Assembly: GCA_020631855.1 (NCBI GenBank) | Contig: JACKGU010000002.1 | Location: 159,447 to 223,446 of the forward strand | Length of the DNA stretch: 64,000 bases | DNA from: Candidatus Nomurabacteria bacterium | GTDB taxonomy: Bacteria; Patescibacteriota; WWE3; UBA101185; UBA10185 | Reading direction: 5' to 3' | In this document: piece by piece, positions 5,857-59,249 of the stretch | Layout: each line of letters begins with the position of its first letter | How positions within the stretch are numbered: the first letter of the stretch is position 1 | The notes under the pieces: model-generated | Databases searched by the model: none | The model's input: the letters and a program-made list of their open reading frames with translations, nothing else | Told to the model about the DNA's origin: nothing | Program-made: the position numbers and the translations under genes

Positions 5857-5858
5857 AT

Positions 5859-11870: not shown

Positions 11871-11926
11871 GCATGTGGCCCCATTTGATATCTGGCTATG
11901 TTGGAATCAACGTAAAACTACAGCCA

Positions 11927-12748: not shown

Positions 12749-12757
12749 TGTATTGGA

Positions 12758-14248
12758 TTACTTTTTATCGCCATAGTCATTTAATATTATTTTATGGGTA
12801 GCTTTTGCCGATAAAATAACTCCGGGCACACCTCCGCCCGGATGAACGCTTGCGCCAACGAAATATAAATTTTTAATATTTTCTGCCTTGTTATGGGGCC
12901 TGAGAGAGGCTATTTGATCGTACCTGGGCTGTAAGCTCCAGCATGCCCCAAGATAGTTATTGCGCTCAGTCCTGAAATTTAGCGGAGTAAAAACTTTTTG
13001 AACCTCAATATTATTTCTCAAATTCTCCAATCCAAAAGAATTTTCGAGAAAGTCTATAATTTTATTTGAGAAAGGCTCAGCTTCGACATCCCAGTCAATA
13101 TTTGCAGCAAGATTCGGGACAGGAACAAGCAGATACAGGCTCTCGCAACCCTCAGGAGCCATAGACTTATCGGTTCTACTTGGCGCATGCAGATACATAG
13201 AAAAATCATCAGGTAAAACCTTGCTTTTAAAGATGTCTTGAATCAATCCTTTGTATCGTTTTGAAATAATAAGTGTGTGATGCAACAACTGGGGGTATTG
13301 CTTTTTAATTCCCAGGTATAAAACAACACAGCTCATGCTATAGTGCATTTTCTTTATTTTTGAAGATTTCCACTTTCCTCTGCTTCTTCCTTTAAGTAAA
13401 TCTAAATAGGTGTTTGCAAAGTGTGAGTTAGATACAACAATGTCAAAACTATAAAACTCTGGTCCAACCCTTACACCTTTTGCGGCATCGTCCTCTACAA
13501 CTATTTCTGTAACTTCTGTGTTTGTTTTAATAACACCCCCGTTTTTTTTAAAAAGTTCGCTCAGAGCCTCCACAACGCTATACATGCCTCCTTTTGTAAA
13601 CCACACTCCCCCATCCTTTTCCAAGTAAGGAAGCATTAAAAACACCGATGGTGTAATAAAGGGGTTTCCACCAATAAATAATGCGTGGAATGAGAACAAG
13701 AATCTTGCTCTAAAGTCCTTGAAGAACCTTGCCACAACCCAATAAGAAGGAAGAATTGCCCCGGTTATTAGTGCTTTTGGAAAATAACCTATAAAATCGA
13801 ACATGCTTAAAAAAGGCTTAGAGCCCAGTCCGTCTAGGATTACCGATTTATACAAATTTTTTGAATAACGCATAAAGCTATAGTATGCCTTTCCATCTTT
13901 CGTATTGAATCTTGTAAGTTGTTCAACCATTTGGTTCTCATCTCCGGAATAGTCAATGTAGGTCTTATCGTGAAAGTAAATTCGATAATATGGGTCTAAA
14001 GCTTGTAGATCTAAATAAGACTTACGGTCTTCGCCAAAGAGTTGAAACAGTTCATCAATAAGGAAAGGTAGCGTAATAATGGAAGGGCCCATATCGAACG
14101 TGTATCCTTTTTCTTTGTATTGACTGGCATGGCCCCCAACAGAAGAATTTTTTTCAAAAATCGTGACCTTATAACCTTCGGATAAGAGCCTGAGCGCTAT
14201 GGAAAGTCCTCCAAAACCAGAACCTATAACAGCAGCCGTTTTATTCAT
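12758..14248 (-). CDS. Phytoene desaturase family oxidoreductase (CrtI/CrtN-like)
   Basis: N-terminal AVIGSGFGGLSIALRL FAD fold, ~496 aa, adjacent to the synthase gene. Confidence 0.65.
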   Translation of the reverse strand: MNKTAAVIGSGFGGLSIALRLLSEGYKVTIFEKNSSVGGHASQYKEKGYTFDMGPSIITLPFLIDELFQLFGEDRKSYLDLQALDPYYRIYFHDKTYIDYSGDENQMVEQLTRFNTKDGKAYYSFMRYSKNLYKSVILDGLGSKPFLSMFDFIGYFPKALITGAILPSYWVVARFFKDFRARFLFSFHALFIGGNPFITPSVFLMLPYLEKDGGVWFTKGGMYSVVEALSELFKKNGGVIKTNTEVTEIVVEDDAAKGVRVGPEFYSFDIVVSNSHFANTYLDLLKGRSRGKWKSSKIKKMHYSMSCVVLYLGIKKQYPQLLHHTLIISKRYKGLIQDIFKSKVLPDDFSMYLHAPSRTDKSMAPEGCESLYLLVPVPNLAANIDWDVEAEPFSNKIIDFLENSFGLENLRNNIEVQKVFTPLNFRTERNNYLGACWSLQPRYDQIASLRPHNKAENIKNLYFVGASVHPGGGVPGVILSAKATHKIILNDYGDKK

Positions 14249-14280
14249 GGAAATATTATACCTAAAATATTCAGGGTGTG

Positions 14281-15145
14281 TTAGTTTAGAGAATTTTTGC
14301 TTGCTAGATAATCATTTTCGCTTAGTCTAAATGTAGCAAGTCTAGTCTGGGAGGAAAGGATGGAGATTTCATCCTTGAGGCGAGAAAGTTCGCCGTAAGC
14401 TTCTATAATAGTTAACGGATTGGGGTCTGATTTAACACGATCTAAAATACTAGATCGACTATCTTTATCACGCCTGGTCTTTAGAAGTGCTTCAGCAACG
14501 TCGTCTTTGGAAAGCTTCCCGATAACCCACCCCTGAGTTTTACAAACCTGGTCTATAGTATTTATGAGATCGGGGGATAATTCGCCCACCGGTTGGCCTA
14601 GAAATGCACCGCAGGCTTCTGAACAGCCTTGTGCAAATTGAGCTTGGTTCCCTTCTATTTGATCTCTAAAATTTGCAATAACTTCAGGACCGAGGGCACT
14701 TAAAAAAAGCCTTTTTAATTTCGGGAAGAAAGGGAAAATCCTTAAGACCATGAGGATCTTCTGGATCTGGGTCGAGTCTAAAAGCGAATGCAGCATGTTC
14801 AGGTTTTCCAAGCAAGGTGAGGGCTGCAGCCGAACCTAGAAGATGGAAAAATATTTTTTCACGAGGAAGATTTTCTTCTGCAGCTTTGTCGAGGTAAGCT
14901 ATTAGCGCGAGGCCTGGAGTTTCGTTAGTCTCTATTATATAGTTTATACCATCAACCACAGAATCAACATGCCCATCTCGATGTGTAAAAAGTGCTTCAG
15001 CTACTCGACGCATAACCATATTTTCAGGCTTTCGTAATGACCTACACATATCATTATCACCTATTATTGCGGTAACAAGCCTGCTATGAATATAATCAAC
15101 ATTCCATTCTGCTGTAGCTCTGTCTACTAAATTAATATTTCTCAT
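14281..15145 (-). pseudogene. Hypothetical gene split by a +1/-1 frameshift at an A7/T5 tract (about 14700-14716)
   Basis: ORFs 14684-15145 and 14281-14811 overlap by 127 bp in adjacent frames. Both translate the same segment (DFPFLPEIKKAFF vs RIFPFFPKLKRLF). Confidence 0.5.
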
Positions 15146-15785
15146 ATAAAATTGAGCCTGATCCGGGCCTCCTGATATTTGCTAGTCCAAAAAGACCAGA
15201 AAATTAGTAAAAGAATGAAATATGTAGTAGGCCCTTTTACAGCTATCATTATATGGCGTAAGGTTATAGGCCGTCAACCATTTCCTTACCGTTGAAATTG
15301 CTTGCTTAAACCCTATAAACCATAGTCTATATTGCGAATATTATAGCCTTATTGCAGATAGTATTTTATGATTTTTTTGTAGCATATCTGAGGCATTTTT
15401 AACTTTATCAAATAGTTCTTCAGGGGCATACCCAAGTACCCTTTGGTCTTTCCCAGCATGTTCCCCAAGGCTTGTCAAAACAGTAAGGGCACATCTAATC
15501 CGGCCTAAATAAACTGCCCCACAAATAAATCCAACAGCAGCGGCCACATTTTTTTCTTCAGTTTGATAATAATAGAGCAGGTATCATACTTCTCCGGCCA
15601 GAGCTTTAACGGCCCTTGAGTTCAATTCAGTAATAACAGCAACAACATATTTTGAATTATCGAATAACAAAGACGTTATCCTCTTCCCGAAGTGTACTAC
15701 TAGCGAACAAACTAATATATTTTTTGATTTTAAACTCTGTATCTCAAGATAGTCTTTAACACGTTTGCTATTTAAGTATCAAATA

Positions 15786-15862
15786 GTGGTGAGAGCGGTG
15801 GGATTCGAACCCACAACCTACCGGTTAAGAGCCGGTTGCTCTGCCATTGAGCTACGCTCCCG
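15786..15862 (-). tRNA. tRNA-Lys (CTT), CCA encoded
   Basis: Reverse complement CGGGAGCGTAGCTCAATGGCAGAGCAACCGGCTCTTAACCGGTAGGTTGTGGGTTCGAATCCCACCGCTCTCACCA. Confidence 0.8.
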
Positions 15863-15948
15863 AACAAAAAGATGCGCGAACTGCTTACAACACACATCAC
15901 GGTAAATAATAGCAGAAATAATGGTAAATTTAAATGTACGCAGGTAAA

Positions 15949-16251
15949 TTAGGACTTCTTTTTGTCGAGATTATCGAGCTTTAAGCCTCTTATTCCGTAG
16001 TATACAATAGCCCCAATTATTAAAAAGTCAATTATAGCGGAAATAAAGTTACCTATATGAATCTCCGCACCGCCAATCATTAATTGTGCGTTTTGTAGAC
16101 CGCCCGCGGCTCCCATAATGAGTCCAAGCACCGGGTTTATTACATCGTTAACTAATGAGGCAACAACTTTAGAGACTGCGCCTCCTAGTATAAATCCTAC
16201 TGATAGGCCAACGACACCTTGCTCTCTAATAAATTCAATAAAACCTTTCAT
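15949..16251 (-). CDS. mscL: Large-conductance mechanosensitive channel
   Basis: MKGFIEFIREQGVVGLSVGFILGGA ... VINPVLGLI ... IDFLIIGAIVY matches the MscL family pattern. 100 aa. Confidence 0.8.
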   Translation of the reverse strand: MKGFIEFIREQGVVGLSVGFILGGAVSKVVASLVNDVINPVLGLIMGAAGGLQNAQLMIGGAEIHIGNFISAIIDFLIIGAIVYYGIRGLKLDNLDKKKS

Positions 16252-16267
16252 ATTTCAACCTTCAATT

Positions 16268-16346
16268 ATGGCGCCCCTGGAGGGATTCGAACCCCCGACC
16301 CCTCGGTCCGAAGCCGAGTGCTCTGATCCGCTGAGCTACAGAGGCG
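16268..16346 (-). tRNA. tRNA-Arg (TCG), CCA encoded
   Basis: Reverse complement CGCCTCTGTAGCTCAGCGGATCAGAGCACTCGGCTTCGGACCGAGGGGTCGGGGGTTCGAATCCCTCCAGGGGCGCCA. Confidence 0.75.
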
Positions 16347-23206: not shown

Positions 23207-25309
23207 TTATTTTAAACCCATGATCACAGCCTCGTTCATGGCTCGAGTTACCGAAACGAAAGCTTTTTTTGCTTTTATAAAGTTGTTAATATTACCTATG
23301 TTCAAGCCTAGCACATAAACCTTTGAGAATTCCAGTCCCTTACAAACCTGAAAGCTTGATACGTAAACCCCTTTAGGTATATAGCTGATTCTGGACTTCT
23401 CGTCGAGGCGAACGATAACTTTCTTATCAACTTTATTTACAACACACTCATCCCCTACAATTTCCATGACTTTCGCCTGAAGTGAGTCATCAAAAAATAT
23501 TACCCCAACACTCTTGTCTAACATACCAAGGTCTGATGAAATTTTTTCTCTAAATGTTTCAAATAATTCGTCCTGGGTATCGAAAAGTAATTCCTCGACT
23601 TCAGGGCCCGGCCGATTTATTGGTATCGGTAGGTAATCGCTCGTATAAGGAGATAAAACCTTGTTGGCGTATTCTATAATTTGCTTAGTACTTCGATAAT
23701 TTGTGTCTAAAACAAAAGTTTGAGCACGACTTGCATCTTCAATAACTTGCTCAATCTGTGACCAAGATTCCAAACCCTCTTCTAAATAACTTTGATTTAA
23801 ATCTCCTAAAATACAAAATCTTCCATGAATAACTACTGATCCAAGAAGTAAATATTCTAGAACACTAAAATCTTGCCCCTCATCAACAACACAATACTGG
23901 AATTTCAAAACTTTATTAAATCCGTAAAGCTTTAAGTGTATGTATAAATAAACCAGCGTATCTGTGTATCCTAAGATTTCTTTCGGGTTTATATCAGAAT
24001 CGGAACATATAGCCGGGAAAGTTTTAGAATCTAGCTCCTGTTTAATGGATTTGGCCTTTTTTATTAGTTTTCTTAAATTACTAATGTTTTCCTTATAAAG
24101 CCATTCTTTTATTGAATTCGGGTGTTCTTTTAGATAAGTCTTTTGGAAATCCAGCTCCTCTTCCAGATCAGATACAAAATCAGCCACATTTTCCATGACA
24201 GACATTTTTGAGTTATAAACAAAGCTCGTGAGACGCTCGAAAGACTCATCTTTTAATAGTTCTGAGAAGACAGCTTTGTAATGATTGTGGATCTTTTGTA
24301 TTTTAGAGTTTAGCTCGTCTATCTTTTCTATACTAAAGTCTGCTAAACCCTCCTCATCATCTAAATCGTATTTGATTCCAATTGATTCTCTAAAAATAAT
24401 ATTAACAACCAACTCTCGAAGGGTCTTATAGTTCACATCAAAAATACCTAGCTTAGGAAACAGCGTTGCCAGGTAGCTTACAAGAACACTGCTTTTTGTT
24501 ACCAAAATAGATCTTTCGGGTAAAATTGTTCCATGATAATTAAAAAATATGTGAGCAAGCTTATGTATTGCTACGGTGCTTTTTCCACTTCCTACCGTAC
24601 CTTGAACCACGCAGATTTGTCTAGGATCTGACTCTATTATGTTAATCTGCGATTCTTGTATTGTTTCAATAATATCTTCAAGGACTCCCCCTGTTCTCTT
24701 GCTAATTTTGTCTGAAATTATTTCATTTTCATCTAATTGAAGGTCGTTGTTGTAGTATTTAACGAGTTCACCATCATTAATTTCAAAAGTTCTCTTCAGC
24801 AAAAGGTCTCGTGTTACCTCTCCATCAGGAGAAACATACGTAACGTTTTTTTGAGGGTATCTATACTTATAAAAAATCGAGGCTATTGGAGCTCTCCAGT
24901 CTGTAACTATCGGCGTATCCTCGTTGTAGCCAAATTTTCCTATGTAAATGCTTTCGTGAGAAGCGGCGTCTTCGGGAGAGCTTGCATTGGCTTGCCCCGA
25001 CACAACCTTCTTTAAATCCAATCTCGCAAAATACGGCTCGCTTGTTAAATATGTCAGCTCGTCTTGTCTTTTAATTTTATCCACAAGATTAAATGAAACA
25101 TTTTTCTCATGTAACTGCTGTATAAACATTGCGTAGTCGCTAGATTCAGCGCTGTCATGTAAGTCACTTAAGTGCTTTAGGTTATCTTTGCCTAGAGTGT
25201 TAAGGCTCTCAAGAAGCTCCTTTCTTGCATTTTTTAGTTTTGCAAGAACCTGCTTAAGTTTATTAAGTTCTTGCTCAAAGATCGGATCCCGTTTGTTATC
25301 TAAAGACAT
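23207..25309 (-). CDS. UvrD/Rep-family helicase, HelD (helicase IV)-like
   Basis: Coiled-coil N-terminus, Walker A VVQGTVGSGKSTVAIHK, motif II CVVDEGQDFS, ~700 aa. Confidence 0.6.
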   Translation of the reverse strand: MSLDNKRDPIFEQELNKLKQVLAKLKNARKELLESLNTLGKDNLKHLSDLHDSAESSDYAMFIQQLHEKNVSFNLVDKIKRQDELTYLTSEPYFARLDLKKVVSGQANASSPEDAASHESIYIGKFGYNEDTPIVTDWRAPIASIFYKYRYPQKNVTYVSPDGEVTRDLLLKRTFEINDGELVKYYNNDLQLDENEIISDKISKRTGGVLEDIIETIQESQINIIESDPRQICVVQGTVGSGKSTVAIHKLAHIFFNYHGTILPERSILVTKSSVLVSYLATLFPKLGIFDVNYKTLRELVVNIIFRESIGIKYDLDDEEGLADFSIEKIDELNSKIQKIHNHYKAVFSELLKDESFERLTSFVYNSKMSVMENVADFVSDLEEELDFQKTYLKEHPNSIKEWLYKENISNLRKLIKKAKSIKQELDSKTFPAICSDSDINPKEILGYTDTLVYLYIHLKLYGFNKVLKFQYCVVDEGQDFSVLEYLLLGSVVIHGRFCILGDLNQSYLEEGLESWSQIEQVIEDASRAQTFVLDTNYRSTKQIIEYANKVLSPYTSDYLPIPINRPGPEVEELLFDTQDELFETFREKISSDLGMLDKSVGVIFFDDSLQAKVMEIVGDECVVNKVDKKVIVRLDEKSRISYIPKGVYVSSFQVCKGLEFSKVYVLGLNIGNINNFIKAKKAFVSVTRAMNEAVIMGLK

Positions 25310-25989
25310 TAAAAGCCTTTCTTTGAAATTAATATTACGAATTCTCCTTTTAGGTTGCTGGTTGTTAGCTGGGGCAGGACATCTTTTACAGTTCCTCTAA
25401 AGTAAGCCTCGTGTATTTTTGACAGCTCTTTAGCTACACAAATTTTTCTATCTTGCAAAGCTTCATCTATGAGAGTTAGGGTTTTAAGTACCCTATAGGG
25501 TGATTCGAACACTATGAGGGTGCAATCGAGCTCGCCGTAAGTTTTTAGCATTTTTTTTGCAGCAGTTTCTTTTCGAGGTAAAAATCCTATAAACGAAAAC
25601 TTATCGGTTGGGAGTCCTGAAGCCGCTATGGCGGTAGTTACAGCGCTTGCGCCAGGCAGTGCCTCTATCTTAATATTCTCTTCTATTAGGCTGGAAACAA
25701 GCTTAAAGCCGGGATCAGAGATTGTAGGCATGCCACTATCAGATACAAGAGCTACTGCGCTCCCTTTAATTAATGCGTCAAGAATTTTTGGGTATGCTTT
25801 GTGGTGATTTTGATCTCTATAGGATATCTGAGGCTTATCAATACCGTAATGGTTGAGAAGTTTCTGCGTCTGTCGAGTGTCCTCAGAGACTATCAGGTCC
25901 ACTGCATTTAAAATATCGATAGCCCTTATGGTAATGTCCTCCATATTGCCTATAGGGGTGGGAACGATATACAAAACAGACGAAGTCAT
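25309..25989 (-). CDS. rsmI: 16S rRNA (cytidine1402-2'-O)-methyltransferase
   Basis: LYIVPTPIGNMEDIT N-terminal tetrapyrrole-methylase-like motif. Likely start at MTSSVLY. Confidence 0.75.
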   Translation of the reverse strand: MTSSVLYIVPTPIGNMEDITIRAIDILNAVDLIVSEDTRQTQKLLNHYGIDKPQISYRDQNHHKAYPKILDALIKGSAVALVSDSGMPTISDPGFKLVSSLIEENIKIEALPGASAVTTAIAASGLPTDKFSFIGFLPRKETAAKKMLKTYGELDCTLIVFESPYRVLKTLTLIDEALQDRKICVAKELSKIHEAYFRGTVKDVLPQLTTSNLKGEFVILISKKGF

Positions 25990-31506: not shown

Positions 31507-32025
31507 TTATTCTTGTGAATGCGCGCCGCCGCCTTGACCCTGCCTCTGTCCCTGACCCTTATTTCCCATTTCCTCTCCTCGCTCTTCTCCTCTACCCATT
31601 CCATTACGTCCTAGGTCCAATTCCGACAGATCAACGCCATTTGTTTCTGCCCACTCCTGCATCTCTTCTCTATGTGCCGCGGTTTTTGCGTGTCTTTCCT
31701 CTATCGATAAGTCTTGCATCTCGGCTCTAAACTGTTCCTGCTTTTGAACAAGCGCATTTTTCTGCTCTTGGCTCAACATTCCTGAGGCAACTGCATCCTC
31801 TAGCTTTGCTTCAACCTCTTCCTTAACTTGTTCACGGTGATTTGCTCTTAGCTCATCTAAGTATGATCTTAGATCATCCGTACTTATACCAAACCTGTCC
31901 GCTACTTGCTGCATCATTGGAGGAAGATCCTGTGTGTCTGCATTTACCTTCAAAATCGAAGGTGCTGCCAACATAGAAAACCCTGCTAAACTTAATACTC
32001 CAACTGCTAAAAATGATTTATTCAT
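31507..32025 (-). CDS. Secreted Spy/CpxP-like (LTxxQ-type) periplasmic stress protein
   Basis: Signal peptide, helical Q/E-rich repeats (LSQEQKNALVQKQEQFRAEMQ) and a Gly-rich tail. Sits next to a histidine kinase / response regulator pair. Confidence 0.45.
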   Translation of the reverse strand: MNKSFLAVGVLSLAGFSMLAAPSILKVNADTQDLPPMMQQVADRFGISTDDLRSYLDELRANHREQVKEEVEAKLEDAVASGMLSQEQKNALVQKQEQFRAEMQDLSIEERHAKTAAHREEMQEWAETNGVDLSELDLGRNGMGRGEERGEEMGNKGQGQRQGQGGGAHSQE

Positions 32026-32134: not shown

Positions 32135-33178
32135 CTACAAAGGAATTTTAAAAGTGAATGTGGTGCCTTCTTCTCTGCTACTACTTACAAATATCTCACC
32201 TTTATGATTCTTAACTATGGCTGCGGCAATAGACAACCCGACGCCGTAACCTTCGTTAATGTTTTTGTTCCTTGATTTTTCAGATTGGTAAAATCTCTCA
32301 AAAATCTTGTCAATCTCAGATGTTTCTATATGATCGCCAAAATTATGTATTTTAAAAACTGCATTCTTTTGCACCTTACTCAAGGTAATGGTTATCTTTG
32401 TATCCTCAAACGCATACTTGATAGCGTTATCAAGTAGGACAGATACAAGCTCATAAATTGATGCGCGGTCACATTTCACATCTATATCTTGTAAATCCAT
32501 CTCAACAGAAATTCTTTTTGAATTCGCTAGAATAAAGTTTTTGGCAACCACATTCTCCACAATAGAGTTCAAACTCGTCAATTTATACGTTGCGGCATTT
32601 AACTTTTCATACTTGCTTTGATTTAAAAATGCGCCAATAAGTGCTGCTAAACGGTTAATCTCCTCAATAGTACTAGAGAAAACCTCTGAAATCTCGGCTC
32701 TAGTAAGTCTTTTATCTCTCATCGCTACCTCAAGCTCAGCTTTCATTGCAGTTAAAGGTGTTTTAAGTTCGTGGGCGGCGTTTGAGACAAAATCTTTCTG
32801 CTTCTCTATCATGACTTCTACCGGCGAAAGGGATTTTCCGGCTATATAGTAGCCAAAAAAGGCTGTAATTAAGATAATGACAATATCTAGGGCAACAATT
32901 TCAATAAATAAGCTTTTCTGTAGCTGTTTCAGCCCCTCTTGCTTGGCCTGGTCTAATGCTAACTGCGCGTTACTCCTTTGAGCTCCGGGACCTTTCCCCG
33001 GACCGGGATCAGAGTTTAATTCAAAAGCCATGTCTATTCTTCGCTGGTGCCTGTCTATCGCTCTCTCAGAGATTGATAGGGTCAAAAAATAAAAAATTCC
33101 GCTAAAAATTAAAAGGGTGAGTGCGACTGTAATTACATACCAAAAAGTAACTTTAAATTTTGTTTTTCTTAATATCAT
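32135..33178 (-). CDS. Sensor histidine kinase
   Basis: Two TMs, H-box AAHELKTPLTAMKAE, and an HATPase region (N/G boxes). Confidence 0.8.
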   Translation of the reverse strand: MILRKTKFKVTFWYVITVALTLLIFSGIFYFLTLSISERAIDRHQRRIDMAFELNSDPGPGKGPGAQRSNAQLALDQAKQEGLKQLQKSLFIEIVALDIVIILITAFFGYYIAGKSLSPVEVMIEKQKDFVSNAAHELKTPLTAMKAELEVAMRDKRLTRAEISEVFSSTIEEINRLAALIGAFLNQSKYEKLNAATYKLTSLNSIVENVVAKNFILANSKRISVEMDLQDIDVKCDRASIYELVSVLLDNAIKYAFEDTKITITLSKVQKNAVFKIHNFGDHIETSEIDKIFERFYQSEKSRNKNINEGYGVGLSIAAAIVKNHKGEIFVSSSREEGTTFTFKIPL

Positions 33179-33843
33179 TGTGGCTCCAGCTTATATCCAA
33201 AACCCCTGACAGTTTTAATATAGTTACAACCGGCCTTTCCTAGCTTTGATCTCAAAGAGGCTATAAAAACCTCAACCGTATTTGGCATTACATCAGATTC
33301 AAAATCCCACACATTTTGAATTAATTTGTCCTTAGATAAAACTTTACCTTTGTTCTTTATTAACATCTCAAGCAACATAAATTCTTTCTTTGACAACTCC
33401 AGAAGCTTTCTATTAAAAGAAATCGTCTTTTGTTGGACATCCAGCTTCAGACTCCCAACTTCAAAAATCTGAGGCGCAATGTTTTTTGGCCTTCGAAGCA
33501 GGGCCTTAATTCTTGCAACAAGCTCATCGAACGCAAAAGGCTTAGTTAAATAGTCATCTGCACCCATTTCAAAGCCTGAAACCTTGTCATCTATTTCTGA
33601 CATAGCTGTGAGCATCAGTATCGGGACTGATATGTTATTTTTTCTGATCTTTGTGCAAATGTCCAGCCCGCTAACTTTTGGGAGCATAAGATCCAAAACG
33701 ATAATATTATAATCCTCAGTAAGAGCCATATCTAGGCCACACTCGCCGTCATAACAAACATCCACAGCAAACATCTCCATTTCTAGGCCTTTTTTGAGAG
33801 AATTTGCGATCTTAATGTCATCTTCAATCACCAGTATCTTCAT
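33175..33843 (-). CDS. OmpR-family response regulator
   Basis: Receiver domain MKILVIEDD...VLDLMLP plus a winged-helix output domain ...VRGFGYKL. Confidence 0.85.
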   Translation of the reverse strand: MKILVIEDDIKIANSLKKGLEMEMFAVDVCYDGECGLDMALTEDYNIIVLDLMLPKVSGLDICTKIRKNNISVPILMLTAMSEIDDKVSGFEMGADDYLTKPFAFDELVARIKALLRRPKNIAPQIFEVGSLKLDVQQKTISFNRKLLELSKKEFMLLEMLIKNKGKVLSKDKLIQNVWDFESDVMPNTVEVFIASLRSKLGKAGCNYIKTVRGFGYKLEPQ

Positions 33844-33872
33844 GTGTATAGTTTAACAAAATAATAAAATAT

Positions 33873-35048
33873 ATGTTACGCTTGTTTAAAATAGATAAGG
33901 ATAAAAATACTATGAGTAAAAATAAAGTTGGATATACTGATTATCGTCCCGCCCGAGACAATTGTTTCAACCCTGCAAATAGACGCGATGGCGATAGAGG
34001 GAGGATCCACAGGTCACTTACATCGCTGCGCTTAGGTAGATTATTAGAAACACCCCGCGGACCTTGTGAGGCAGAAGCGCCAGAGGAAACAAAACTAACC
34101 TTCTACTTGTTTAAACATTTATTTCAACAGATGCCTAATATGTTAAACGCTATTGAGGAAAAACCAGATTTACTGCCCGAGACCGAAGATCGTTGGGGAT
34201 TATGGGATGAAATAAAGAGAAGAGAGTTAGATCATTTCGTCAGATTCTTAAAAAGTATGGGAGATAGAATAACGGCTCTTTCAGAGTTACTGTCGACAGA
34301 GCGCCTCCCGAGACCATACACCAGAGAGAATAAAGGAGTTCTTGAAGCTTTAATACCGATCGATTTATGCAAAAGGAGGCCGAATGAGAATTGTGTTTTC
34401 CCTACTGCAAGAGTCTTGTATGACCCTCTACAACTAGGCGGAGCACTTCCTGACGAGTATAAAGGGCTTCCGGAGAGTGAGGTTATGGCTAAGTTTCTAG
34501 AAACACCCGGGTCACTTCACCCAGAACAGGCAGCAAAAGTCTTATCAATAGATAAAAATATGGTTATAGAGGCAGTTGAGGAATGGGGGCGTGCTCCTTC
34601 GGCTATGCTGACTGTGATGTTTGCTCAACAAAATATAAACAAAAACAACCCTTTTGGTAACGGAACACGCCTTCCTTATGAGTACACCAACTTCAGACTG
34701 TATATAAGTTATGATCGACAACACGGCCTCATGGTAACTCCTGCCCTAGTGTATAATCAAGACTCGGATCAAGTTGGGGGGCGCTCAGAAACTATACTTC
34801 TCGGAGAAAAGACACCTTTAATAAGTGCAGGAACCGCCCATATAACCCAAGAGGATCTTAACACTGCAATAATAAGTAGATTTGGGCTCGGTGGCAACGG
34901 CGGTGGCAACGGCAGCAACAACGGCCCCGAAGGGGGGAAAGAATACCACCATACAGCAACAGGTAGCAGAGGAATGGAAGATCCGGGCGACAGCACCAAA
35001 GCCCAGGGAAGTAATCGTCGTAAAAGAAAATATAAATTTCAATCTTAG
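33873..35048 (+). CDS. Orphan hypothetical protein with atypically high GC and a Gly/Asn-rich basic C-terminus
   Basis: 391-aa ORF, noticeably more GC-rich than its neighbours. Ends GGNGGGNGSNNGPEGG...RRKRKYKF. No signal peptide or motif recognised. Confidence 0.4.
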   Translation: MLRLFKIDKDKNTMSKNKVGYTDYRPARDNCFNPANRRDGDRGRIHRSLTSLRLGRLLETPRGPCEAEAPEETKLTFYLFKHLFQQMPNMLNAIEEKPDLLPETEDRWGLWDEIKRRELDHFVRFLKSMGDRITALSELLSTERLPRPYTRENKGVLEALIPIDLCKRRPNENCVFPTARVLYDPLQLGGALPDEYKGLPESEVMAKFLETPGSLHPEQAAKVLSIDKNMVIEAVEEWGRAPSAMLTVMFAQQNINKNNPFGNGTRLPYEYTNFRLYISYDRQHGLMVTPALVYNQDSDQVGGRSETILLGEKTPLISAGTAHITQEDLNTAIISRFGLGGNGGGNGSNNGPEGGKEYHHTATGSRGMEDPGDSTKAQGSNRRKRKYKFQS

Positions 35049-35118
35049 GCCAGCCAGGATAAAGGTTCTCTCTCAATACTTAAATGTCGACAGGGCTCGC
35101 ACCACCTCATACAGCAGC

Positions 35119-36711
35119 TTAATTGCATCTTAAAACAAATACCAGAGGCTCTAGCCTACTCCCAAACGAACTAACATGCCGGGGACATAAGGCAGAAATT
35201 TCTTCTAAGTGCTCTATAGAAGTCACGGCATATTGTGAATCTTTACTATAAAAAGAACTCACAACTCTCTTATAATAAGGCCTAAAAGAGTCTATGTTAT
35301 AAGGTAACCAAAGGTCTCCTTCTACGGGTATCTTGTTTAAATACAGTGCTGCGTCTGAATAATACTCCCCGCTATTATCATAAACATTTAACGACAAGGC
35401 TTTAGCAGAAGGGTTTGGTCCAAGAATAGGAGAGTAAAAAGCAGAATAGGACGGGTGGTAGATGTAAAAAATTATAAATGTAAATAGCAATGTTGTGCAA
35501 GCAATTAAACCTGCTTTAACTTTTGAATTTGCAAAATAAATAGACGTAATAAGCAGTATCGGCAATATTAGAGCAATAGAATATCTATCAATTTTTTTAA
35601 CCGATATAGATAGAGCAAAAAAATATGTCGCTACATACAACAGCAGCCATGCATATTTTTTTATGTTATTTTTAGAAAATATCGCAACTGCAAATACCCA
35701 AATAGACAAAAAAGCGGAAAGCGGAGATAGCTTGAGAAATAGTATAAAAGGATAATAAAACATAGAAAATGCCCCCGAAAAAGGTGTTTCTCTAACATCC
35801 GTATATATACCCCCGGTAATGCCCCCCAAGACTTTTGTTATAACAAATAGCGGATGTGCGGGAAGAGCAGGAAAAAATACAACAACAGTTAGCATAAATG
35901 ATATAAGAAAATATGCCACAGACTTTATAATCGAACGAGCATCAAGATCTACACCAAGATTTAAGAAGCGCTTGAACCTGAAACCAGACTTAAAAGAAAA
36001 AAACCTAGATATAATAACAAAAATACAAGGAATCAGGGCTACAAGGTTGGTAACTTTTGTGAGTACTGCGAGTCCTATCAAAAGACCAGAAAGTACTACG
36101 TAGAAAGTACCTCCGAATTTTTTCCAATACCATATAGTTAGAAAACCCGAAAAAGCAAGGTAGGTCTCCAAAGATGACAAATGAAACCAACGATCCAGAC
36201 CTACTAGATAAGGTTCGCAGGCTATCAGCAAACCATATAAAAGAGAGGTTCTTTGATCGTAAAGCTTAGATACAATTATCAACTGATAAGAAAATAGTAT
36301 AAACAAAAAGATAACGATAGAGCCCTTTGAAATTTGCTGAATAAAAGGATAATAAGAAGAATTTTCAAAAGTAAGCTCGGAAAAATCTTCCGCAAACCTA
36401 TAATTATAAGACTTCGATAACTGTAAAACTAAGGAATTAATCCACATTAGGGTTACTCCAGGGTGATAGCTTTGATACGTTTCCTTAAAGTTATGAGATT
36501 TGATTGCTGTTAAAAAATTTTCCGATCTCCGATGCCACCTATAAGCATCCGAATTTGAGATATCTGTTTGCAAACTTGTAAGTCTCAATGCAAGAAACAA
36601 AGTAGCAACGAACACAAAAAGTATATATTTTTTATCTATTGTAGATAAAACGCGCAATAGTTTTGCAAAAATACTTGCCGGTAAATTTAAAAAATAATGA
36701 TATACGCCCAT
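35119..36711 (-). CDS. GT-C fold glycosyltransferase (PMT/ArnT-like), second copy
   Basis: 530-aa polytopic membrane protein with many TMs and a periplasmic C-terminal domain. Confidence 0.45.
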   Translation of the reverse strand: MGVYHYFLNLPASIFAKLLRVLSTIDKKYILFVFVATLFLALRLTSLQTDISNSDAYRWHRRSENFLTAIKSHNFKETYQSYHPGVTLMWINSLVLQLSKSYNYRFAEDFSELTFENSSYYPFIQQISKGSIVIFLFILFSYQLIIVSKLYDQRTSLLYGLLIACEPYLVGLDRWFHLSSLETYLAFSGFLTIWYWKKFGGTFYVVLSGLLIGLAVLTKVTNLVALIPCIFVIISRFFSFKSGFRFKRFLNLGVDLDARSIIKSVAYFLISFMLTVVVFFPALPAHPLFVITKVLGGITGGIYTDVRETPFSGAFSMFYYPFILFLKLSPLSAFLSIWVFAVAIFSKNNIKKYAWLLLYVATYFFALSISVKKIDRYSIALILPILLITSIYFANSKVKAGLIACTTLLFTFIIFYIYHPSYSAFYSPILGPNPSAKALSLNVYDNSGEYYSDAALYLNKIPVEGDLWLPYNIDSFRPYYKRVVSSFYSKDSQYAVTSIEHLEEISALCPRHVSSFGSRLEPLVFVLRCN

Positions 36712-40215: not shown

Positions 40216-40291
40216 TGGGGTGGCTGATCGGGATCGAACCGACGACATCCGCCTCCACAGGGCGGCGTTCTACCGCTGAACTACAGCCACC
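40216..40291 (-). tRNA. tRNA-His (GTG) with genomically encoded G-1 and CCA
   Basis: Reverse complement G-GTGGCTGTAGTTCAGCGGTAGAACGCCGCCCTGTGGAGGCGGATGTCGTCGGTTCGATCCCGATCAGCCACCCCA. Confidence 0.8.
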
Positions 40292-40452
40292 ATATAAGGT
40301 TGTAATTACAACCATTGAATTATAACACAGCGCACGCGAGGCGATCTAAACAAACAGGGTTAAGCTTTCGCAATAGAAGCCCCGCATTCCCTTCTTTTAC
40401 CCTTCCCAAAAACTTTAAAATCCTATAAAACAGTCTGCATCCAGTTAAAGTG

Positions 40453-41862
40453 TCATTTCTTCCAGCCCATGAAGTCTAGGAACCTGTCTGCCGCAGTAAA
40501 AGTGTACTTTTCGCCTACTCCTGTTATGTGTTTTGAGACGTAAAAGTTTGCATATGGGTGATACAAAAATATGGCCGGAACATACTCGTCTATTACTTTT
40601 TGGAATTCATTATAATGAATTAACCTTTGGTCGGTGTCGATAGCATTTCTACCTTCTTCTAAGGCTCTATCAGCTCTGACCTGATCAAAGTTCGACAGGT
40701 TTAGTCCAGGAAATTCTTTTTGGGTTGAGTGCCAATTAATGTATCTATCCGGATCCCTCCCCACTGCCTGTCCATAGAGTAATATTTGATAATCGCGTTT
40801 ATTAATAACGTCCTCAATGAATGTGGTAGGATCTCTTTTTTGAATTTTTACATTAACCTTTAGCTTGTCTTCCCAAATCCCTTTAATTCTCTCGGCCATT
40901 TGTTTGTGATTTTTAAGATCCGGAATTGTTATTACAAGCTCTTTTCCATCGAGATCATCTCTTAACCCCTTATTATACTTATCGTAATCTATATCAGGAT
41001 CGGTATAAATACTTCTGCTTATTGGCCCCTCAACATTAATCCCCCGGTCATATATGAGCTCGTTTATGTTTAGAGTTGCCCTAAGATCTTCTCGAAACTC
41101 CAGTTCTGACAAACCCTCGTTGTCTAAATTGAGGAAGAGGGCGAAATAGATGCCCTGCAATGGGAATTTTTTATTATCAAAATTTTCCAACTGGTGCTCC
41201 TGAGATGACATAAAAGCATCTATTTCGCCCAACCTGGCAGAAAGCTCCAGCTCGTCCTCACTGCTGTAATATCTAAAGGAAATCTTTTTAATCTCAGGGT
41301 TTGCCGTTTCTGAATAAAGCATAACCTCTTTAACAACCTTACCGCTCTTTGAAACCCTAACCACCCTAAAAGGACCGCTTGATACCGGAGACAGGGGGTT
41401 ATATTCTTCCTCAGAACCGTCCTTCATAACTCCCTTAGTAAGCAAACTAATAAACGGTGAGAATTTGTTTGGAAGAATATATCTAACAGTGAGATCATCA
41501 ACTTTGTCTGTTCCGACATCCTGAAGATACCTGCTTTTAAACGCGGTGTATATTAGATCGTCCGCAACAATGGGGCTACCATCCGACCATCTCTGGTTTT
41601 CCTTTAATGTGATTGTATAAACAAGTCCATCGCTAGAAATCGACCAGCTATCGGCCAAATCCGGCACCAAGGTGCCATAAATATCATACTTAAATAAACC
41701 TCTGTAAATAAGCTGGGATATTGTAGTGTCGTTTTGGGATACTGCCTGACTGGGAAAAAATGACTCCGGCTGGCCAACAATTCCTTCGGTATAAGACTTC
41801 ACCGGGGCTATGGCAAAAATAAAAGACACCAATAAATATACTGTTTTGTGCAATAAATGCAT
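40453..41862 (-). CDS. Extracellular solute-binding protein (family 5, Opp/Dpp-like)
   Basis: Signal peptide. ~469 aa. Confidence 0.5.
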   Translation of the reverse strand: MHLLHKTVYLLVSFIFAIAPVKSYTEGIVGQPESFFPSQAVSQNDTTISQLIYRGLFKYDIYGTLVPDLADSWSISSDGLVYTITLKENQRWSDGSPIVADDLIYTAFKSRYLQDVGTDKVDDLTVRYILPNKFSPFISLLTKGVMKDGSEEEYNPLSPVSSGPFRVVRVSKSGKVVKEVMLYSETANPEIKKISFRYYSSEDELELSARLGEIDAFMSSQEHQLENFDNKKFPLQGIYFALFLNLDNEGLSELEFREDLRATLNINELIYDRGINVEGPISRSIYTDPDIDYDKYNKGLRDDLDGKELVITIPDLKNHKQMAERIKGIWEDKLKVNVKIQKRDPTTFIEDVINKRDYQILLYGQAVGRDPDRYINWHSTQKEFPGLNLSNFDQVRADRALEEGRNAIDTDQRLIHYNEFQKVIDEYVPAIFLYHPYANFYVSKHITGVGEKYTFTAADRFLDFMGWKK

Positions 41863-42178
41863 GAATATATTCTACCAAAAGGTTACAAATAACGATATCA
41901 ACAGACCTTTGGCGAAGACCTGCCTAAATATACAAAAAAGAGCCCTCGAAATTCAAGAGCTCTTTATTAGTGCAGACGACGGTAAACAAAAGTTTGGTGC
42001 TCAAGAGAGCATGTCGTCTGCAGTAAATATATTATCAAAATATTTTTATGTGTCAACATATTTTATTTTCTGCTCAATAGAACTTCTATAACTTATTAGG
42101 AACCAACAAAACCTTACAGATGGGTAATTAGTTGCCTAAACAGGGTGTTTATTGATAAAATACCCTAGTCATACACCA

Positions 42179-42254
42179 GGCCCCATCGTCTAGTGGACTA
42201 GGACATCAGGTTTTCATCCTGGAAACGGGGGTTCAATTCCCCCTGGGGTCACCA
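42179..42254 (+). tRNA. tRNA-Glu (TTC), CCA encoded
   Basis: GGCCCCATCGTCTAGTGGACTAGGACATCAGGTTTTCATCCTGGAAACGGGGGTTCAATTCCCCCTGGGGTCACCA. Confidence 0.8.
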
Positions 42255-48832: not shown

Positions 48833-49912
48833 GTGCCCAAAACAAAACTGCTTGAACAGAACATGTCAATGGCCTTATCTTTTGACGACGTATTACTTGT
48901 CCCGCAGAGATCTAAAGTATTATCGCGTTCCGATGTAGACCTTTCAACAAAAATCACACAAGAACTAGAGCTAAAAATACCTTTAATTTCCACAAATATG
49001 GATAATATAACAGGCGTAGCCATGGCTATAAAAATGCACGAACTTGGCGGAATAGGCGTACTTCCAAGATTCGAGTCCGTAGAATCACAGGTTCAAAAAG
49101 TAAAAAAAGTAGCTTCTGTCGGGGCAAAAGTCATTGCATCTGTGGGAATTAAAGAGGGAGAGCTTGAGAGGGCCGAGATGCTGGTTCTATCCGGAGTATC
49201 GGGGCTGGACGTAGATGTTGCGCACGGCCACATGTCTAAAGCTATAGATTTTACAGCAATGTTAAAAAATAAATTTGGGAACAAAGTAGCCATTATCGGG
49301 GGCATCGCGTCCACAGGAGAATGTGCCGAAGATTTCTACAAAGCCGGAGCAGATGTTGTGTCCGTTGGCATTGGCGGAGGATCCATATGCTCAACCAGAA
49401 TTCAAACAGGGTGCGGGGTTCCAACACTAGCATCGCTCCTGGACATTGCACCTATTGCCAAAAAATACAAAAAGACATTTTTTCCTTTAGCGGGAATAAA
49501 GAATTCGGGAGACATTGTTAAATCTCTCGCTGCGGGATCTTGCGCAATAAGAGGAGGCAACATTTTCTCCGGAACAGATGAAGCTCCTGGAGACATAATT
49601 GAAATCGACGGAAGATACTACAAAAGATATAACGGATCAACTTCTGAGGAAGAAAAAATCAAACAGCGTAATCTCGGCTCAAACGGCAAAAATAAACACT
49701 ACACGATTCACATAGAAGGGTATGAGGCTCTGGTTCCCTATAAAGGTCCGGTTGAGGACGTGGTTCAAAGATTGCTGGCAGGCGTAAGGTCTGGATTTAG
49801 CTATTGTGGGGCTTCTAACATAGACGAGCTTCAACGCAACGCGACGTTCATTAAGATAACGAACGCCGGAATTTCAGAAAACGGCGCGCACGACGTCAGA
49901 GTAGTTAAATAA
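48833..49912 (+). CDS. IMP dehydrogenase/GMP reductase family protein lacking a CBS pair
   Basis: FDDVLLVP, GIGGGSICSTR catalytic-Cys loop, 359 aa. Confidence 0.7.
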   Translation: MPKTKLLEQNMSMALSFDDVLLVPQRSKVLSRSDVDLSTKITQELELKIPLISTNMDNITGVAMAIKMHELGGIGVLPRFESVESQVQKVKKVASVGAKVIASVGIKEGELERAEMLVLSGVSGLDVDVAHGHMSKAIDFTAMLKNKFGNKVAIIGGIASTGECAEDFYKAGADVVSVGIGGGSICSTRIQTGCGVPTLASLLDIAPIAKKYKKTFFPLAGIKNSGDIVKSLAAGSCAIRGGNIFSGTDEAPGDIIEIDGRYYKRYNGSTSEEEKIKQRNLGSNGKNKHYTIHIEGYEALVPYKGPVEDVVQRLLAGVRSGFSYCGASNIDELQRNATFIKITNAGISENGAHDVRVVK

Positions 49913-49964: not shown

Positions 49965-50621
49965 ATGACTACAACACCTGTAACAAACAGTATAAACACT
50001 GTGTTTTCCGCAAACTCAGATATAGAGAATGAGACACTTATAGATGCAAAAAGGTTCATGAATGAGCACTACGGCAATAAATATTCTCACATACCGCCCC
50101 ACATCTCATACACAATAATGCCTCTTCCCGAGTACAACTTTGAAAGAGCCAAAGATGATTTAATAGCTTATGTCATAAAACAAAAACCTTACTTGCTAAA
50201 GCTCTCGGATCTTAAATTCGACAATAGGGATAATTTATTTTATATAGAAGTATCTGGTAAAGATATGCAAAGGCTGCACGAAGATATTACCATCTTGCTC
50301 AACAAACACAGGGAAGGTTTTATTAGAGAAAAAGATTTAGAAAGAATATCTAAAGGATATTTTAACGATAATGAGCTGGAATACCTAAGACAGTATGGTT
50401 ATTCGAGGGTATTTGAATGTTTTCGCCCGCACATTTCAATAGGCAACTTTACAGTGGAAAACGTAGATGTGCCGGAACTTACAAAAATACTTAAAGAAAA
50501 ATTAACCGGCGTGTTAAACAAAAGCTTAGTACTTAATAACATTCGAGCACTTTTTCATACTGACGCGGGCAGTCAACAAGAAGCGGAGGTTTTTTGGGAA
50601 AGCAACTATCTGCTGTCTTAG
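49965..50621 (+). CDS. 2H phosphoesterase (LigT-like) family protein
   Basis: Two H-x-S/T-x motifs: PPHISYTIM and RPHISIGNF. Confidence 0.5.
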   Translation: MTTTPVTNSINTVFSANSDIENETLIDAKRFMNEHYGNKYSHIPPHISYTIMPLPEYNFERAKDDLIAYVIKQKPYLLKLSDLKFDNRDNLFYIEVSGKDMQRLHEDITILLNKHREGFIREKDLERISKGYFNDNELEYLRQYGYSRVFECFRPHISIGNFTVENVDVPELTKILKEKLTGVLNKSLVLNNIRALFHTDAGSQQEAEVFWESNYLLS

Positions 50622-52096: not shown

Positions 52097-53674
52097 ATGT
52101 CAGATGAACAAAAAAGACTTTTAGAAAAACAGCTATGGGCTGTTGCCAATACCCTTAGGGGAAAAATGAATGCCGACGAGTATAAAAACTACATACTCGG
52201 CTTCATCTTTTATAAGTACTTATCCGAAAAACTAGAAAAGTATATTAACGAAACCCTCTTATCACGTGAAAGTTTTAAATTTGCTGAAATAAAAGAAGAA
52301 ACAGACGAGGGTAAAAAGATACTAGAAGAGATAAAAAAGGCTTGTGTAAACCATTTGGGCTTTTTCTTACAACCAAACGAACTGTTTTCACACATAGTTA
52401 AAAAAGGTAAGGGAGAACTAAAAGATCAATCTACTTTCATACTGGAAGATCTAAAAGTAATACTAGACACTATCGAAAAGACCTCAATGGGAACAGATAG
52501 CGAAGACGACTTTAAAGGCTTGTTTGATGATGTAGATCTTACCTCTTCTAAGCTTGGTTCAAGCGAAAATAAGAAAAACGAAGCTATTGTAGAGGTACTA
52601 AAACTCCTAAATGGCATAGATTTCAGACTAGAAGACTCAAAAAGTGATCTGTTGGGCGATGCATATGAGTATCTTATTGGTGAATTTGCCGCGGGAGCAG
52701 GTAAAAAGGGTGGTGAGTTCTATACACCTGCGCAGGTTTCAAGATTGTTGGCGCAATTTGTAACTGTTGGGAAGAAAAAAATACGCTCAGTTCTAGACCC
52801 AACCTGTGGTTCTGGATCTTTATTACTCAGACTTAGAGATTATGTTGAGGTAGCTGATTATTACGGGCAAGAGCTTAATCCAACCACATACAACCTAGCA
52901 CGAATGAATATGATTCTTCACGGAGTGCACTTTGATCATTTCACAATAAGACAAGGCGACACTCTAACAGAAGATAGATTTCCTGACTTACAAGCAGAAG
53001 CTATTGTAGCCAATCCACCATTTTCAGCTAAATGGAAGAGTGAAGATGATCCCGCGCTTGTTCATGATGAGAGATTTTCACAATATGGACGTTTAGCACC
53101 AAAAAGTGCAGCGGATTATGCCTTTGTAACTCACATGCTTCACCACCTTAGCGAGAACGGTACTATGGCCATTGTCCTACCACATGGAGTGCTTTTTAGG
53201 GGTGGATCTGAGGGGCAGATAAGAAAACATATCATAGCTAAGCAAAACACCCTGGACGCTGTTGTGGGGCTCCCAGCGAACCTTTTTTATGGCACTTCTA
53301 TCCCTGCATGTGTCCTTGTATTCAAGAAATGCAGACAAGACGATGATGATATTTTATTTATAGATGCCAGTAAGGATTTTGAGAAAAACAAGAATCAGAA
53401 CTATCTAACAGATGAGAATATCAAAAAGATCTTTGAAACTTATAAAGACAGAAAAGAAATTGAAAAGTACTCCCATAAAGCCACACTGGAAGAGATAAAA
53501 GAAAACGATTTTAACCTCAATATCCCAAGGTATGTCGACACATTCGAAGAACCTGAAGAAATTGATATCAAACAAGTTGCACACGAACTACAAAAGTCAG
53601 TAAAAAGAGAGCCTGACATTAAAGCGAAGCTTAATGAAATCCTAGTAGAACTTAATTTGGAAAGTCCTTTTTAG
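52097..53674 (+). CDS. hsdM: Type I restriction-modification N6-adenine DNA methyltransferase subunit
   Basis: HsdM N-terminal domain, AdoMet motif DPTCGSGS, catalytic VANPPFS. Confidence 0.9.
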   Translation: MSDEQKRLLEKQLWAVANTLRGKMNADEYKNYILGFIFYKYLSEKLEKYINETLLSRESFKFAEIKEETDEGKKILEEIKKACVNHLGFFLQPNELFSHIVKKGKGELKDQSTFILEDLKVILDTIEKTSMGTDSEDDFKGLFDDVDLTSSKLGSSENKKNEAIVEVLKLLNGIDFRLEDSKSDLLGDAYEYLIGEFAAGAGKKGGEFYTPAQVSRLLAQFVTVGKKKIRSVLDPTCGSGSLLLRLRDYVEVADYYGQELNPTTYNLARMNMILHGVHFDHFTIRQGDTLTEDRFPDLQAEAIVANPPFSAKWKSEDDPALVHDERFSQYGRLAPKSAADYAFVTHMLHHLSENGTMAIVLPHGVLFRGGSEGQIRKHIIAKQNTLDAVVGLPANLFYGTSIPACVLVFKKCRQDDDDILFIDASKDFEKNKNQNYLTDENIKKIFETYKDRKEIEKYSHKATLEEIKENDFNLNIPRYVDTFEEPEEIDIKQVAHELQKSVKREPDIKAKLNEILVELNLESPF

Positions 53675-54825
53675 TGGTGGTACTAGAAAAAGCATTATTA
53701 GTACCGCCTTTGAGATTTAAAGGGTTTACTGGTAATTGGAACGAGGTGTCGCTGAAACAGCTTCTTACTCCTATTGAGAGAAAAACAAAAAAACCAGCTG
53801 AGAGTTACACATCGATTGGAATACGAAGCCACTTTAAAGGTACTATGCAAAGATACGACACTGATCCTAAAAGTAATTCTATGGAATATCTCTACTTAGT
53901 ACATAAGGACGATTTTATTCTAAACATAACATTTGCTTGGGAAGGCGCTCTAGCTATTGCGAGGGAAGAAGATGATTTAGGTTATGTATCTCACAGATTT
54001 CCAACATATCGAGTTAATGAGGATATCGTTACAAAGGAGTTTTTTCAATATCTGTACCCAACGGAAAGAATGAAATATAACTTAAGAAATATATCTCCAG
54101 GCGGTGCAGGTCGAAATAGAGTGTTAAATAAAAGGGATTTTCTTAAATTGAAAGTAAAGATTCCTGAAACAGATGAGCAAAATAAGATATCTGAGTTTAT
54201 GCGCTCTCTGGAAGATTGGATACAAAACTTAAAATCACAAAAGGAAGAACTTGAGAAATATAAAAAAGGCATGATGCAGAAGATTTTCTCTCAAGAGATT
54301 AGGTTTAAAGATGGTAATGGTAAAGATTATCCCGATTGGAAAGATGTTAAATTCAAAGACATCTTTGTTGTAGGTAGTGGTAAAGATTATAAGCATCTAC
54401 AAAGCGGTGATATTCCAGTTTATGGTACAGGTGGTTACATGACCTCAGTTAATGATTATCTCTATGAGGGCGAAAGTGTAGGTATTGGAAGAAAAGGTAC
54501 AATCGATAAGCCTATATTTCTTAAAAACAAGTTTTGGACTGTGGACACACTATTTTATACACATTCTTTTAAGGGCGTTTTACCTTATTTTGTTTTCTTA
54601 TTGTTTCAAAACGTGAATTGGAAGAAATACAACGAGGCTTCAGGTGTACCAAGTCTATCTAAAAACACTCTTTATACAATCAAAACTAGGGTACCTAGTA
54701 TCGACGAACAAAACAAAATTATAGCGTTGTTCACGTCTTTAGAAGATCTAACAAGTTCAAAGCAAAATCAAATAGAAAAAGCAGAAATGTGGAAAAAAGG
54801 TTTATTGCAGGAGATGTTTGTATAA
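53674..54825 (+). CDS. hsdS: Type I restriction-modification specificity subunit
   Basis: Two target-recognition domains separated by conserved helical spacers. Start overlaps the hsdM stop. Confidence 0.8.
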   Translation: MVVLEKALLVPPLRFKGFTGNWNEVSLKQLLTPIERKTKKPAESYTSIGIRSHFKGTMQRYDTDPKSNSMEYLYLVHKDDFILNITFAWEGALAIAREEDDLGYVSHRFPTYRVNEDIVTKEFFQYLYPTERMKYNLRNISPGGAGRNRVLNKRDFLKLKVKIPETDEQNKISEFMRSLEDWIQNLKSQKEELEKYKKGMMQKIFSQEIRFKDGNGKDYPDWKDVKFKDIFVVGSGKDYKHLQSGDIPVYGTGGYMTSVNDYLYEGESVGIGRKGTIDKPIFLKNKFWTVDTLFYTHSFKGVLPYFVFLLFQNVNWKKYNEASGVPSLSKNTLYTIKTRVPSIDEQNKIIALFTSLEDLTSSKQNQIEKAEMWKKGLLQEMFV

Positions 54826-59246: not shown

Positions 59247-59249
59247 AAA

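Follow-up and report, generated by a model that had tools for sequence, protein, structure and literature searches.

The locus centers on an open reading frame (ORF) whose neighbors are ordinary chromosomal genes, including those for LeuRS, a permease, a two-component system, an ArnT/PMT_2-like glycosyltransferase, and hydrolases. The glycosyltransferase is an adjacent 530-aa membrane protein, which is PMT_2/ArnT-like according to the annotations of its homologs; its own Pfam match reaches only E = 0.021. All positions refer to the window, that is, the whole 64-kb stretch of DNA that was analyzed. The main features are as follows.

33873..35048, plus strand: the ORF, the longest frame from the first ATG (M1) to a TAG stop, stop included; 391 amino acids
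33912..35048, plus strand: the coding sequence annotated by NCBI in GCA_020631795.1, hypothetical protein H6802_03780, 378 amino acids, starting at M14
33175..33843, minus strand: OmpR-type response regulator, the divergent neighbor; Pfam Response_reg (7e-28) and Trans_reg_C (1e-24)
32135..33178, minus strand: histidine kinase, sharing an operon with the regulator; Pfam HisKA and HATPase_c
33844..33911, strandless: putative divergent control region shared with the regulator, composed of a 29-bp gap and 39 bp that belong to the coding sequence only with a start at M1; consensus matches

The window containing the ORF is 100% identical to contig JACKGV010000006.1 (629,590 bp) of assembly GCA_020631795.1. 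The NCBI label of this matching assembly is Candidatus Nomurabacteria, and identical proteins are labeled as candidate division WWE3. Eight further contigs from other samples (one from ENA and seven from Logan/ENA) are 99.93–100% identical over 1.8–7.2 kb. Samples carrying the organism include SRR14234040, SRR14234113, SRR23493589, and ERZ27248703. Within the ORF, all recovered copies agree base for base, except for homopolymer indels in one low-quality contig. From these near-identical contigs of other samples, the ORF is judged to be stable in the population. Three members of its protein cluster (P0004, P0005, and P0006) appear frameshifted. In P0004 and P0006, which derive from one contig (L017), the frameshifts arise where a CCCC run and a GGGGGG run have each lost one base. 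A third single-base deletion, in an AAAAA run, falls within the kinase gene of the same contig, and the frameshifts of L017 were therefore treated as sequencing errors. Pseudogenization of P0004 and P0006 was rejected on these grounds.

Two start codons are in competition. The ATG of M14 (33912), which NCBI picks, has AAGGA 10 nt upstream. The ATG of M1 (33873), which other gene callers pick, stands in an AATAAT-N7-ATG arrangement. This resembles a leaderless-type layout that is common in the window, where many genes have a TATAAT-like box 6–7 nt before the ATG. The best promoter-like match of the divergent regulator is TTTAAA-18-TATTAT, running from 33890 to 33861, and its −35 box would lie inside codons 1–13 of the longer frame. 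The original prediction noted that only 29 bp separate the ORF from the start of the divergent regulator (33843) and proposed an internal start. The gap is indeed 29 bp (33844–33872). The internal start is plausible in view of the NCBI choice of M14, the AAGGA, and the divergent −35 box, whereas the other callers and the AATAAT-N7 arrangement favor M1. On consensus matching only, we lean towards M14 (33912) over M1 (33873) as the probable translation start. The control region (33844..33911) carries −10-like hexamers in both directions, which are consensus matches only, and a candidate repeated motif within it is no more frequent than expected by chance.

Protein architecture and the question of secretion

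The protein divides into three parts by charge and hydropathy, and a short repeat lies within the last of them.

33912..34097, plus strand: N-terminal Arg-rich arm, residues 14–75; disordered side of the charge–hydropathy boundary (+0.196), AlphaFold2 (AF2) pLDDT below 45
34098..34883, plus strand: core, residues 76–337, slightly acidic; folded side of the boundary (−0.091)
34884..35045, plus strand: C-terminal arm, residues 338–391, a Gly/Asn-rich linker followed by a basic tail; disordered side of the boundary (+0.356)
34889..34912, plus strand: perfect 12-bp tandem duplication, CGGTGGCAACGG x2, encoding a repeated GGNG

Residues 338–355, GLGGNGGGNGSNNGPEGG, comprise 10 Gly and 4 Asn among 18 residues. 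The perfect 12-bp tandem duplication points to a slippage-type origin of this low-complexity segment. The protein ends with ...GSNRRKRKYKFQS, its basic tail being RRKRKYKFQS. Lys or Arg occupies six of the seven positions 382–388, and the last 31 residues have a net charge of +5. The local GC content of the C-terminal arm is 0.50–0.52. Thus, the Gly/Asn-rich, basic C-terminus named in the original prediction is present, although the end quoted there (...KYKF) missed the last two residues and the basic N-terminus went unmentioned. Basic character is even stronger at the N-terminus than at the C-terminus, the first 60 residues having a net charge of +8 (+4 in each of the blocks 1–30 and 31–60).

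Structure prediction, which had been proposed as a check along with the original prediction, was run with AlphaFold2 on the single sequence and gave no confident fold. The pLDDT was 35.6 for the full-length protein and 39.0 when the core was modeled alone, and neither model is trustworthy. In these low-confidence AF2 models, the core contains predicted helices followed by a few beta strands. By composition only, the core would be the folded part of the protein.

The highest 19-residue Kyte–Doolittle mean anywhere in the protein is 0.79, and the strongly basic first 60 residues contain no hydrophobic run that could form an N-terminal hydrophobic segment. Because of this lack of a hydrophobic segment, a Sec/Tat signal peptide, a membrane anchor, or a signal of the LPXTG/PEP type is not predicted. 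Judged by hydropathy, the product appears to have neither a signal peptide nor a transmembrane segment. A C-terminal sorting signal (sortase LPXTG or PEP-CTERM) is likewise absent, the basic tail being preceded by a hydrophilic Gly/Asn-rich stretch with no hydrophobic segment. None of the 32 ORFs checked by Pfam or in the precomputed table was recognized as a secretion-system gene; these ORFs lie in the 64-kb window, which is part of a contig of at least 630 kb.

These data do not bear out the suggestion in the original prediction that the protein is secreted. A related possibility is that it is a secreted or host-directed effector of an episymbiotic cell of the candidate phyla radiation (CPR) and that its basic C-terminal tail serves as the signal for export. 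Positively charged C-terminal signals are found in type IV secretion substrates, and the C-terminus here is both basic and disordered. The protein is also lineage-specific and probably fast-evolving, as are many effectors. Nevertheless, we consider this reading doubtful, since it is at odds with the hydropathy profile, with the lack of an LPXTG or PEP-type motif and membrane anchor ahead of the tail, and with the lack of secretion-system genes among the ORFs checked. Furthermore, the N-terminus is equally basic, which suits binding to a polyanion better than a C-terminal signal.

Base composition and origin of the gene

The ORF had attracted attention as visibly GC-richer than its neighbors and as a candidate for horizontal acquisition. 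The GC rise itself is clear. The GC content is 0.438, compared with a mean of 0.372 (s.d. 0.033) over 55 long ORFs. Taken as a 1176-bp segment, the ORF ranks at the 99.7th percentile across the 64 kb. The DNA quoted as an example, GGTGGCAACGGCGGTGGCAACGGCAGCAACAACGGCCCCGAAGGGGGG, is located at 34890–34937. Elevated GC is not unique to the ORF, since those at 31507–32025 (0.455) and 48863–49912 (0.439) are comparably GC-rich.

The excess sits at codon positions 1 and 2 and not at position 3. GC1 is 0.518 (z = +1.2), GC2 is 0.418 (z = +2.3), and GC3 is 0.378 versus 0.326 ± 0.049 (z of about +1). Compared with the local average, the product contains 2.1 times as much Arg, 1.9 times as much Pro, and 1.5 times as much Gly. 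It is poor in Ile, Val, Phe, and Lys, with Ile and Val halved. When the protein was recoded with background codon usage, the expected GC was 0.425, leaving a residual of +0.013 (z = +0.8) to the observed value; approximately three quarters of the excess is predicted by amino-acid composition alone. Therefore, the high GC of the ORF results mostly from the Arg/Pro/Gly-rich make-up of its protein. The eye-catching rise is a composition effect of disordered Arg/Pro/Gly-rich segments and no mark of foreign DNA.

Synonymous codon choice is within the range of the other genes (z = −1.1, 10th lowest of 55). The dinucleotide delta* of 0.054 corresponds to the 19th percentile among all 1176-bp windows. 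The tetranucleotide L1 distance is on the high side (91st percentile), in part owing to GC. In composition, the ORF is native and follows the codon and dinucleotide style of its own genome. The GC and codon check proposed with the original prediction thus found normal composition at synonymous sites, an outcome that the prediction had itself named as counting against a foreign origin.

The surroundings were inspected for signs of mobility. No integrase or other mobility gene was seen near the ORF, and no tRNA gene borders it, the nearest being at 40216. The flanking repeats found are only short and of low identity; they include a 25-nt inverted repeat that is 72% complementary and has both arms inside the neighboring genes. 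A pattern scan of IMG/VR and tblastn against phages and plasmids gave no match to the ORF.

A recent horizontal acquisition, either as a foreign island or as a single-gene insertion from a GC-richer donor, would agree with the extreme GC percentile, with the tetranucleotide distance, and with the loci of relatives, which carry no homolog of the ORF (see below). Like horizontally acquired genomic islands, the ORF has locally raised GC. Unlike them, it has normal codons and dinucleotides and is not accompanied by mobility genes, a border tRNA, or flanking repeats of significance. The coding score is also genome-typical, the GC excess is mostly accounted for by the protein, and no donor homolog was found among 15 billion proteins. 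Because GC3, codons, and dinucleotides are normal and neither mobility genes nor significant repeats are present, recent transfer is not supported, and we regard it as improbable. This part of the original prediction is unsupported. An old transfer that has since been ameliorated may have occurred.

Relatives, age and coding status

A word-indexed search of 5.8 billion protein clusters with the ORF product returned only its own 100%-identical cluster. Exhaustive phmmer (HMMER) over 1.84 billion representatives gave the same cluster only. No match was obtained at E ≤ 10 in Pfam, PHROGs, NCBIfam, or PADLOC, nor at E ≤ 10 among PDB sequences. A metagenome scan with the ORF found only a 100%-identical fragment, and no paralog is present within the window. 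The protein appears to have no detectable sequence relative anywhere searched. It had been described as an orphan with no recognizable domain; this description agrees with the searches by phmmer and profile libraries, in which only the protein itself was recovered.

The conserved neighbors of the ORF put this result into context. Identity to the closest non-self relative is 44% for the adjacent glycosyltransferase and 36% for the neighboring histidine kinase. We collected 14 related loci, five via the neighboring glycosyltransferase and nine via the closest relatives of the glycosyltransferase and the kinase. Gene order around the glycosyltransferase and kinase relatives in these loci differs from that of the ORF locus, and tblastn of the ORF against all 14 found no homolog (best E = 0.16). 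Since even conserved neighbors reach only 36–44% identity to anything sampled, the orphan status appears to stem largely from sparse sampling. In a lineage sampled this sparsely, a moderately fast-evolving and partly disordered protein is expected to drift beyond detection. Of the 22 genes called in the 21-kb neighborhood, five have no Pfam match on record, and the orphan status of the ORF product is ordinary here. The literature found on WWE3/Katanobacteria consisted of general CPR papers only.

Alternatively, the ORF might be a young gene of this lineage, arisen de novo or heavily remodeled from sequence that was non-coding or read in another frame, in which replication slippage extended the low-complexity parts. 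The complete lack of homologs, the predicted disorder over approximately 30% of its length, and the perfect 12-bp tandem duplication within the Gly/Asn linker are all in keeping with this scenario. We nevertheless think it unlikely. As a de novo gene, the ORF would be very long at 391 amino acids. Its codon and frame statistics are also wholly typical of the genome, and the sampled relatives are so distant that ordinary divergence suffices.

The coding status of the ORF was assessed in several ways. When the bases of the ORF were shuffled 2000 times, the longest run without a stop was 94 codons on average and 250 at most, compared with the observed 391. A frame-specific codon model, trained on the other 54 ORFs of the window, gave a coding score (in-frame minus best out-of-frame) of 0.175 per codon, which is the median of the 55 ORFs (rank 27). 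The coding-frame score was positive in 11 of 12 sliding 60-codon windows, and GC content by codon position falls in the order GC1 > GC2 > GC3. The other five frames are interrupted repeatedly, with no piece longer than 94 amino acids, and all their Pfam matches are below threshold. An Rfam search over 33500–35500 gave only a chance match at E = 8.3, located outside the ORF. Folding of the GC-rich 3′ part and of the convergent intergenic spacer was no better than that of shuffled sequences (z = +1.03 and +0.56, respectively). A structured RNA at the ORF was accordingly rejected, Rfam being empty there and the folding energy not falling below that of shuffles. From the shuffles, the frame score, the broken alternative frames, and the negative Rfam and folding results, the ORF is a real coding sequence and neither an RNA nor a chance ORF. 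High local GC in an AT-rich genome often marks structured RNA, and the protein has neither a homolog nor a confident structure, but the reading that this is no gene at all, being either a chance ORF or one that overlaps a structured non-coding RNA responsible for the high GC, is hardly credible for a frame that outruns every shuffle and scores like a median gene.

Interpretation and comparison with known systems

We propose that the ORF is a genuine, native, and taxonomically restricted ORFan of a sparsely sampled, ultra-small WWE3/Katanobacteria-like member of the CPR, a reading to which we assign a probability of roughly 60%. Its orphan status would be due mainly to rapid divergence: even in conserved proteins, the nearest sampled relatives of the lineage are only 36–44% identical. 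The encoded protein is probably soluble and cytoplasmic, with a mass of about 42–44 kDa. It would consist of a folded alpha-then-beta core (approximately residues 76–337) flanked by two disordered, positively charged arms. The basic arms may hold the protein on a polyanion, with nucleic acid as the first candidate; the charge of the arms suggests such binding. The gene and the OmpR-type two-component operon appear to be transcribed divergently, and that system possibly controls the gene. From the gene arrangement, it is plausible that the ORF is a target of the adjacent regulator.

It is conceivable, albeit as a long shot, that the protein represents the first known case of a new fold or family. 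It would then be a two-component-controlled factor, either polyanion-binding (DNA or RNA) or host-directed, confined to one deep WWE3-like lineage and possibly recent. As the lineage-specific ORFan that we prefer, it enlarges the already extensive dark fraction of CPR proteomes by one function-unknown gene and carries little weight alone. The missing homologs are to be expected when conserved neighbors reach at most 44% identity to anything sampled. If the ORF is indeed a two-component target, it would give a first view of the targets of this system, in an organism that has very few regulators.

Basic disordered arms that bind nucleic acid are known from the Lys/Arg-rich tails of nucleoid-associated proteins and the Arg-rich arms of capsid proteins. 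The ORF product shares with them an Arg-rich stretch of 60 residues at its start (net +8) and the RRKRKYK tail, and both of its ends likewise lie on the disordered side of the charge–hydropathy plot. However, the searches revealed neither an HU, histone-like, or capsid domain nor a phage context, and the likeness is compositional only.

The arrangement of the locus recalls that of cpxP next to cpxRA in Escherichia coli, where cpxP is divergently transcribed from, and controlled by, the two-component operon. The ORF likewise stands back-to-back with an OmpR-type regulator/kinase operon, and the putative shared control region measures 29–68 bp. CpxP itself is small, resides in the periplasm, and carries a signal peptide and LTXXQ motifs. 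Unlike CpxP, the ORF product has 391 amino acids, no predicted signal peptide, and no Pfam match, and the shared region contains no binding-site repeat above chance.

The closest comparison is with the ORFan hypothetical proteins of the CPR (Patescibacteria). The ORF belongs to this well-known class and has already been deposited as a hypothetical protein. Like other members, it has neither a detectable homolog nor a detectable domain and lies among ordinary chromosomal genes; it is set apart only by its length (378–391 aa) and its GC content at the top end of the window (99.7th percentile).

Start-site layout in the window

Many genes across the window have a TATAAT-like -10 box merely 6-7 nt 5' of the ATG, and the same genes are devoid of a Shine-Dalgarno sequence. 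Examples of genes with this layout are as follows:

6455-7165 (-)
12758-14248 (-)
25309-25989 (-)
35119-36711 (-)
49965-50621 (+)

This layout suggests that leaderless mRNAs are widespread in this genome.

Genes around the orphan ORF and the two-component operon

Two further proteins are encoded near the orphan ORF and the histidine kinase:

31507-32025 (-), a 172-aa protein directly downstream of the histidine kinase
35119-36711 (-), a 530-aa multi-pass membrane protein with a sub-threshold Pfam match to PMT_2 (E=0.021)

The 172-aa protein begins with a hydrophobic, signal-like segment, continues with a charged helical part, and has a tail rich in Gly, Gln, and Arg. The GC content of its ORF (0.455) is the highest of any in the window. 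A Pfam search with this protein returned no family above threshold. An 'LSQEQ' stretch is reminiscent of LTXXQ/CpxP-like proteins, but Pfam returned no match of that kind. A relative with 31% identity is present in L003, a related locus from another genome, and in a second related locus (L014), the corresponding post-kinase position is taken by a 161-aa gene that has no Pfam match.

Homologs of the 530-aa membrane protein carry PF13231/PF02366 and are named ArnT or GT39 glycosyltransferase; apart from itself, its nearest relative shares no more than 44% identity. Three independent contigs (L018, L022, and L023) carry one T>A polymorphism at position 36713, just upstream of the first ATG of the 530-aa ORF, and in these contigs the gene is called as 498 aa rather than 530 aa.

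The near-identical contig L017 (Logan SRR17907852) has three one-base homopolymer deletions, at the window equivalents of the following positions:

32354, run AAAAA
34053, run CCCC
34776, run GGGGGG

These deletions, which were seen in L017 alone, cut the kinase short and split the orphan ORF. They are most likely sequencing errors.

Defense-type cluster and tRNA genes

A defense-type cluster occupies 52097-61299 (+) and contains, in order:

type I restriction-modification HsdM, HsdS, and HsdR, with a UvrD-like helicase inserted
a PD-(D/E)XK/Cas4-like nuclease and an Mrr restriction endonuclease

Within this cluster, the 56.4-59.4 kb part departs further in dinucleotide signature than any other part of the window. 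The 64-kb window has ten tRNA genes (located at 3770-16345, 40216-42254, and 62782-62856), including a Gly, Gly, Leu, Leu cluster at 7267-8713.

Gene order in a WWE3 relative

L003 (9911-15340) is the locus of WWE3 bacterium RIFCSPHIGHO2_02_FULL_38_14. Here, approximately 2.2 kb separates the glycosyltransferase ortholog from a related kinase/regulator pair. In this interval, another large membrane protein and a gene of 181 aa are encoded in place of the orphan ORF. The two-component operon of L003 is inverted relative to that of the window.
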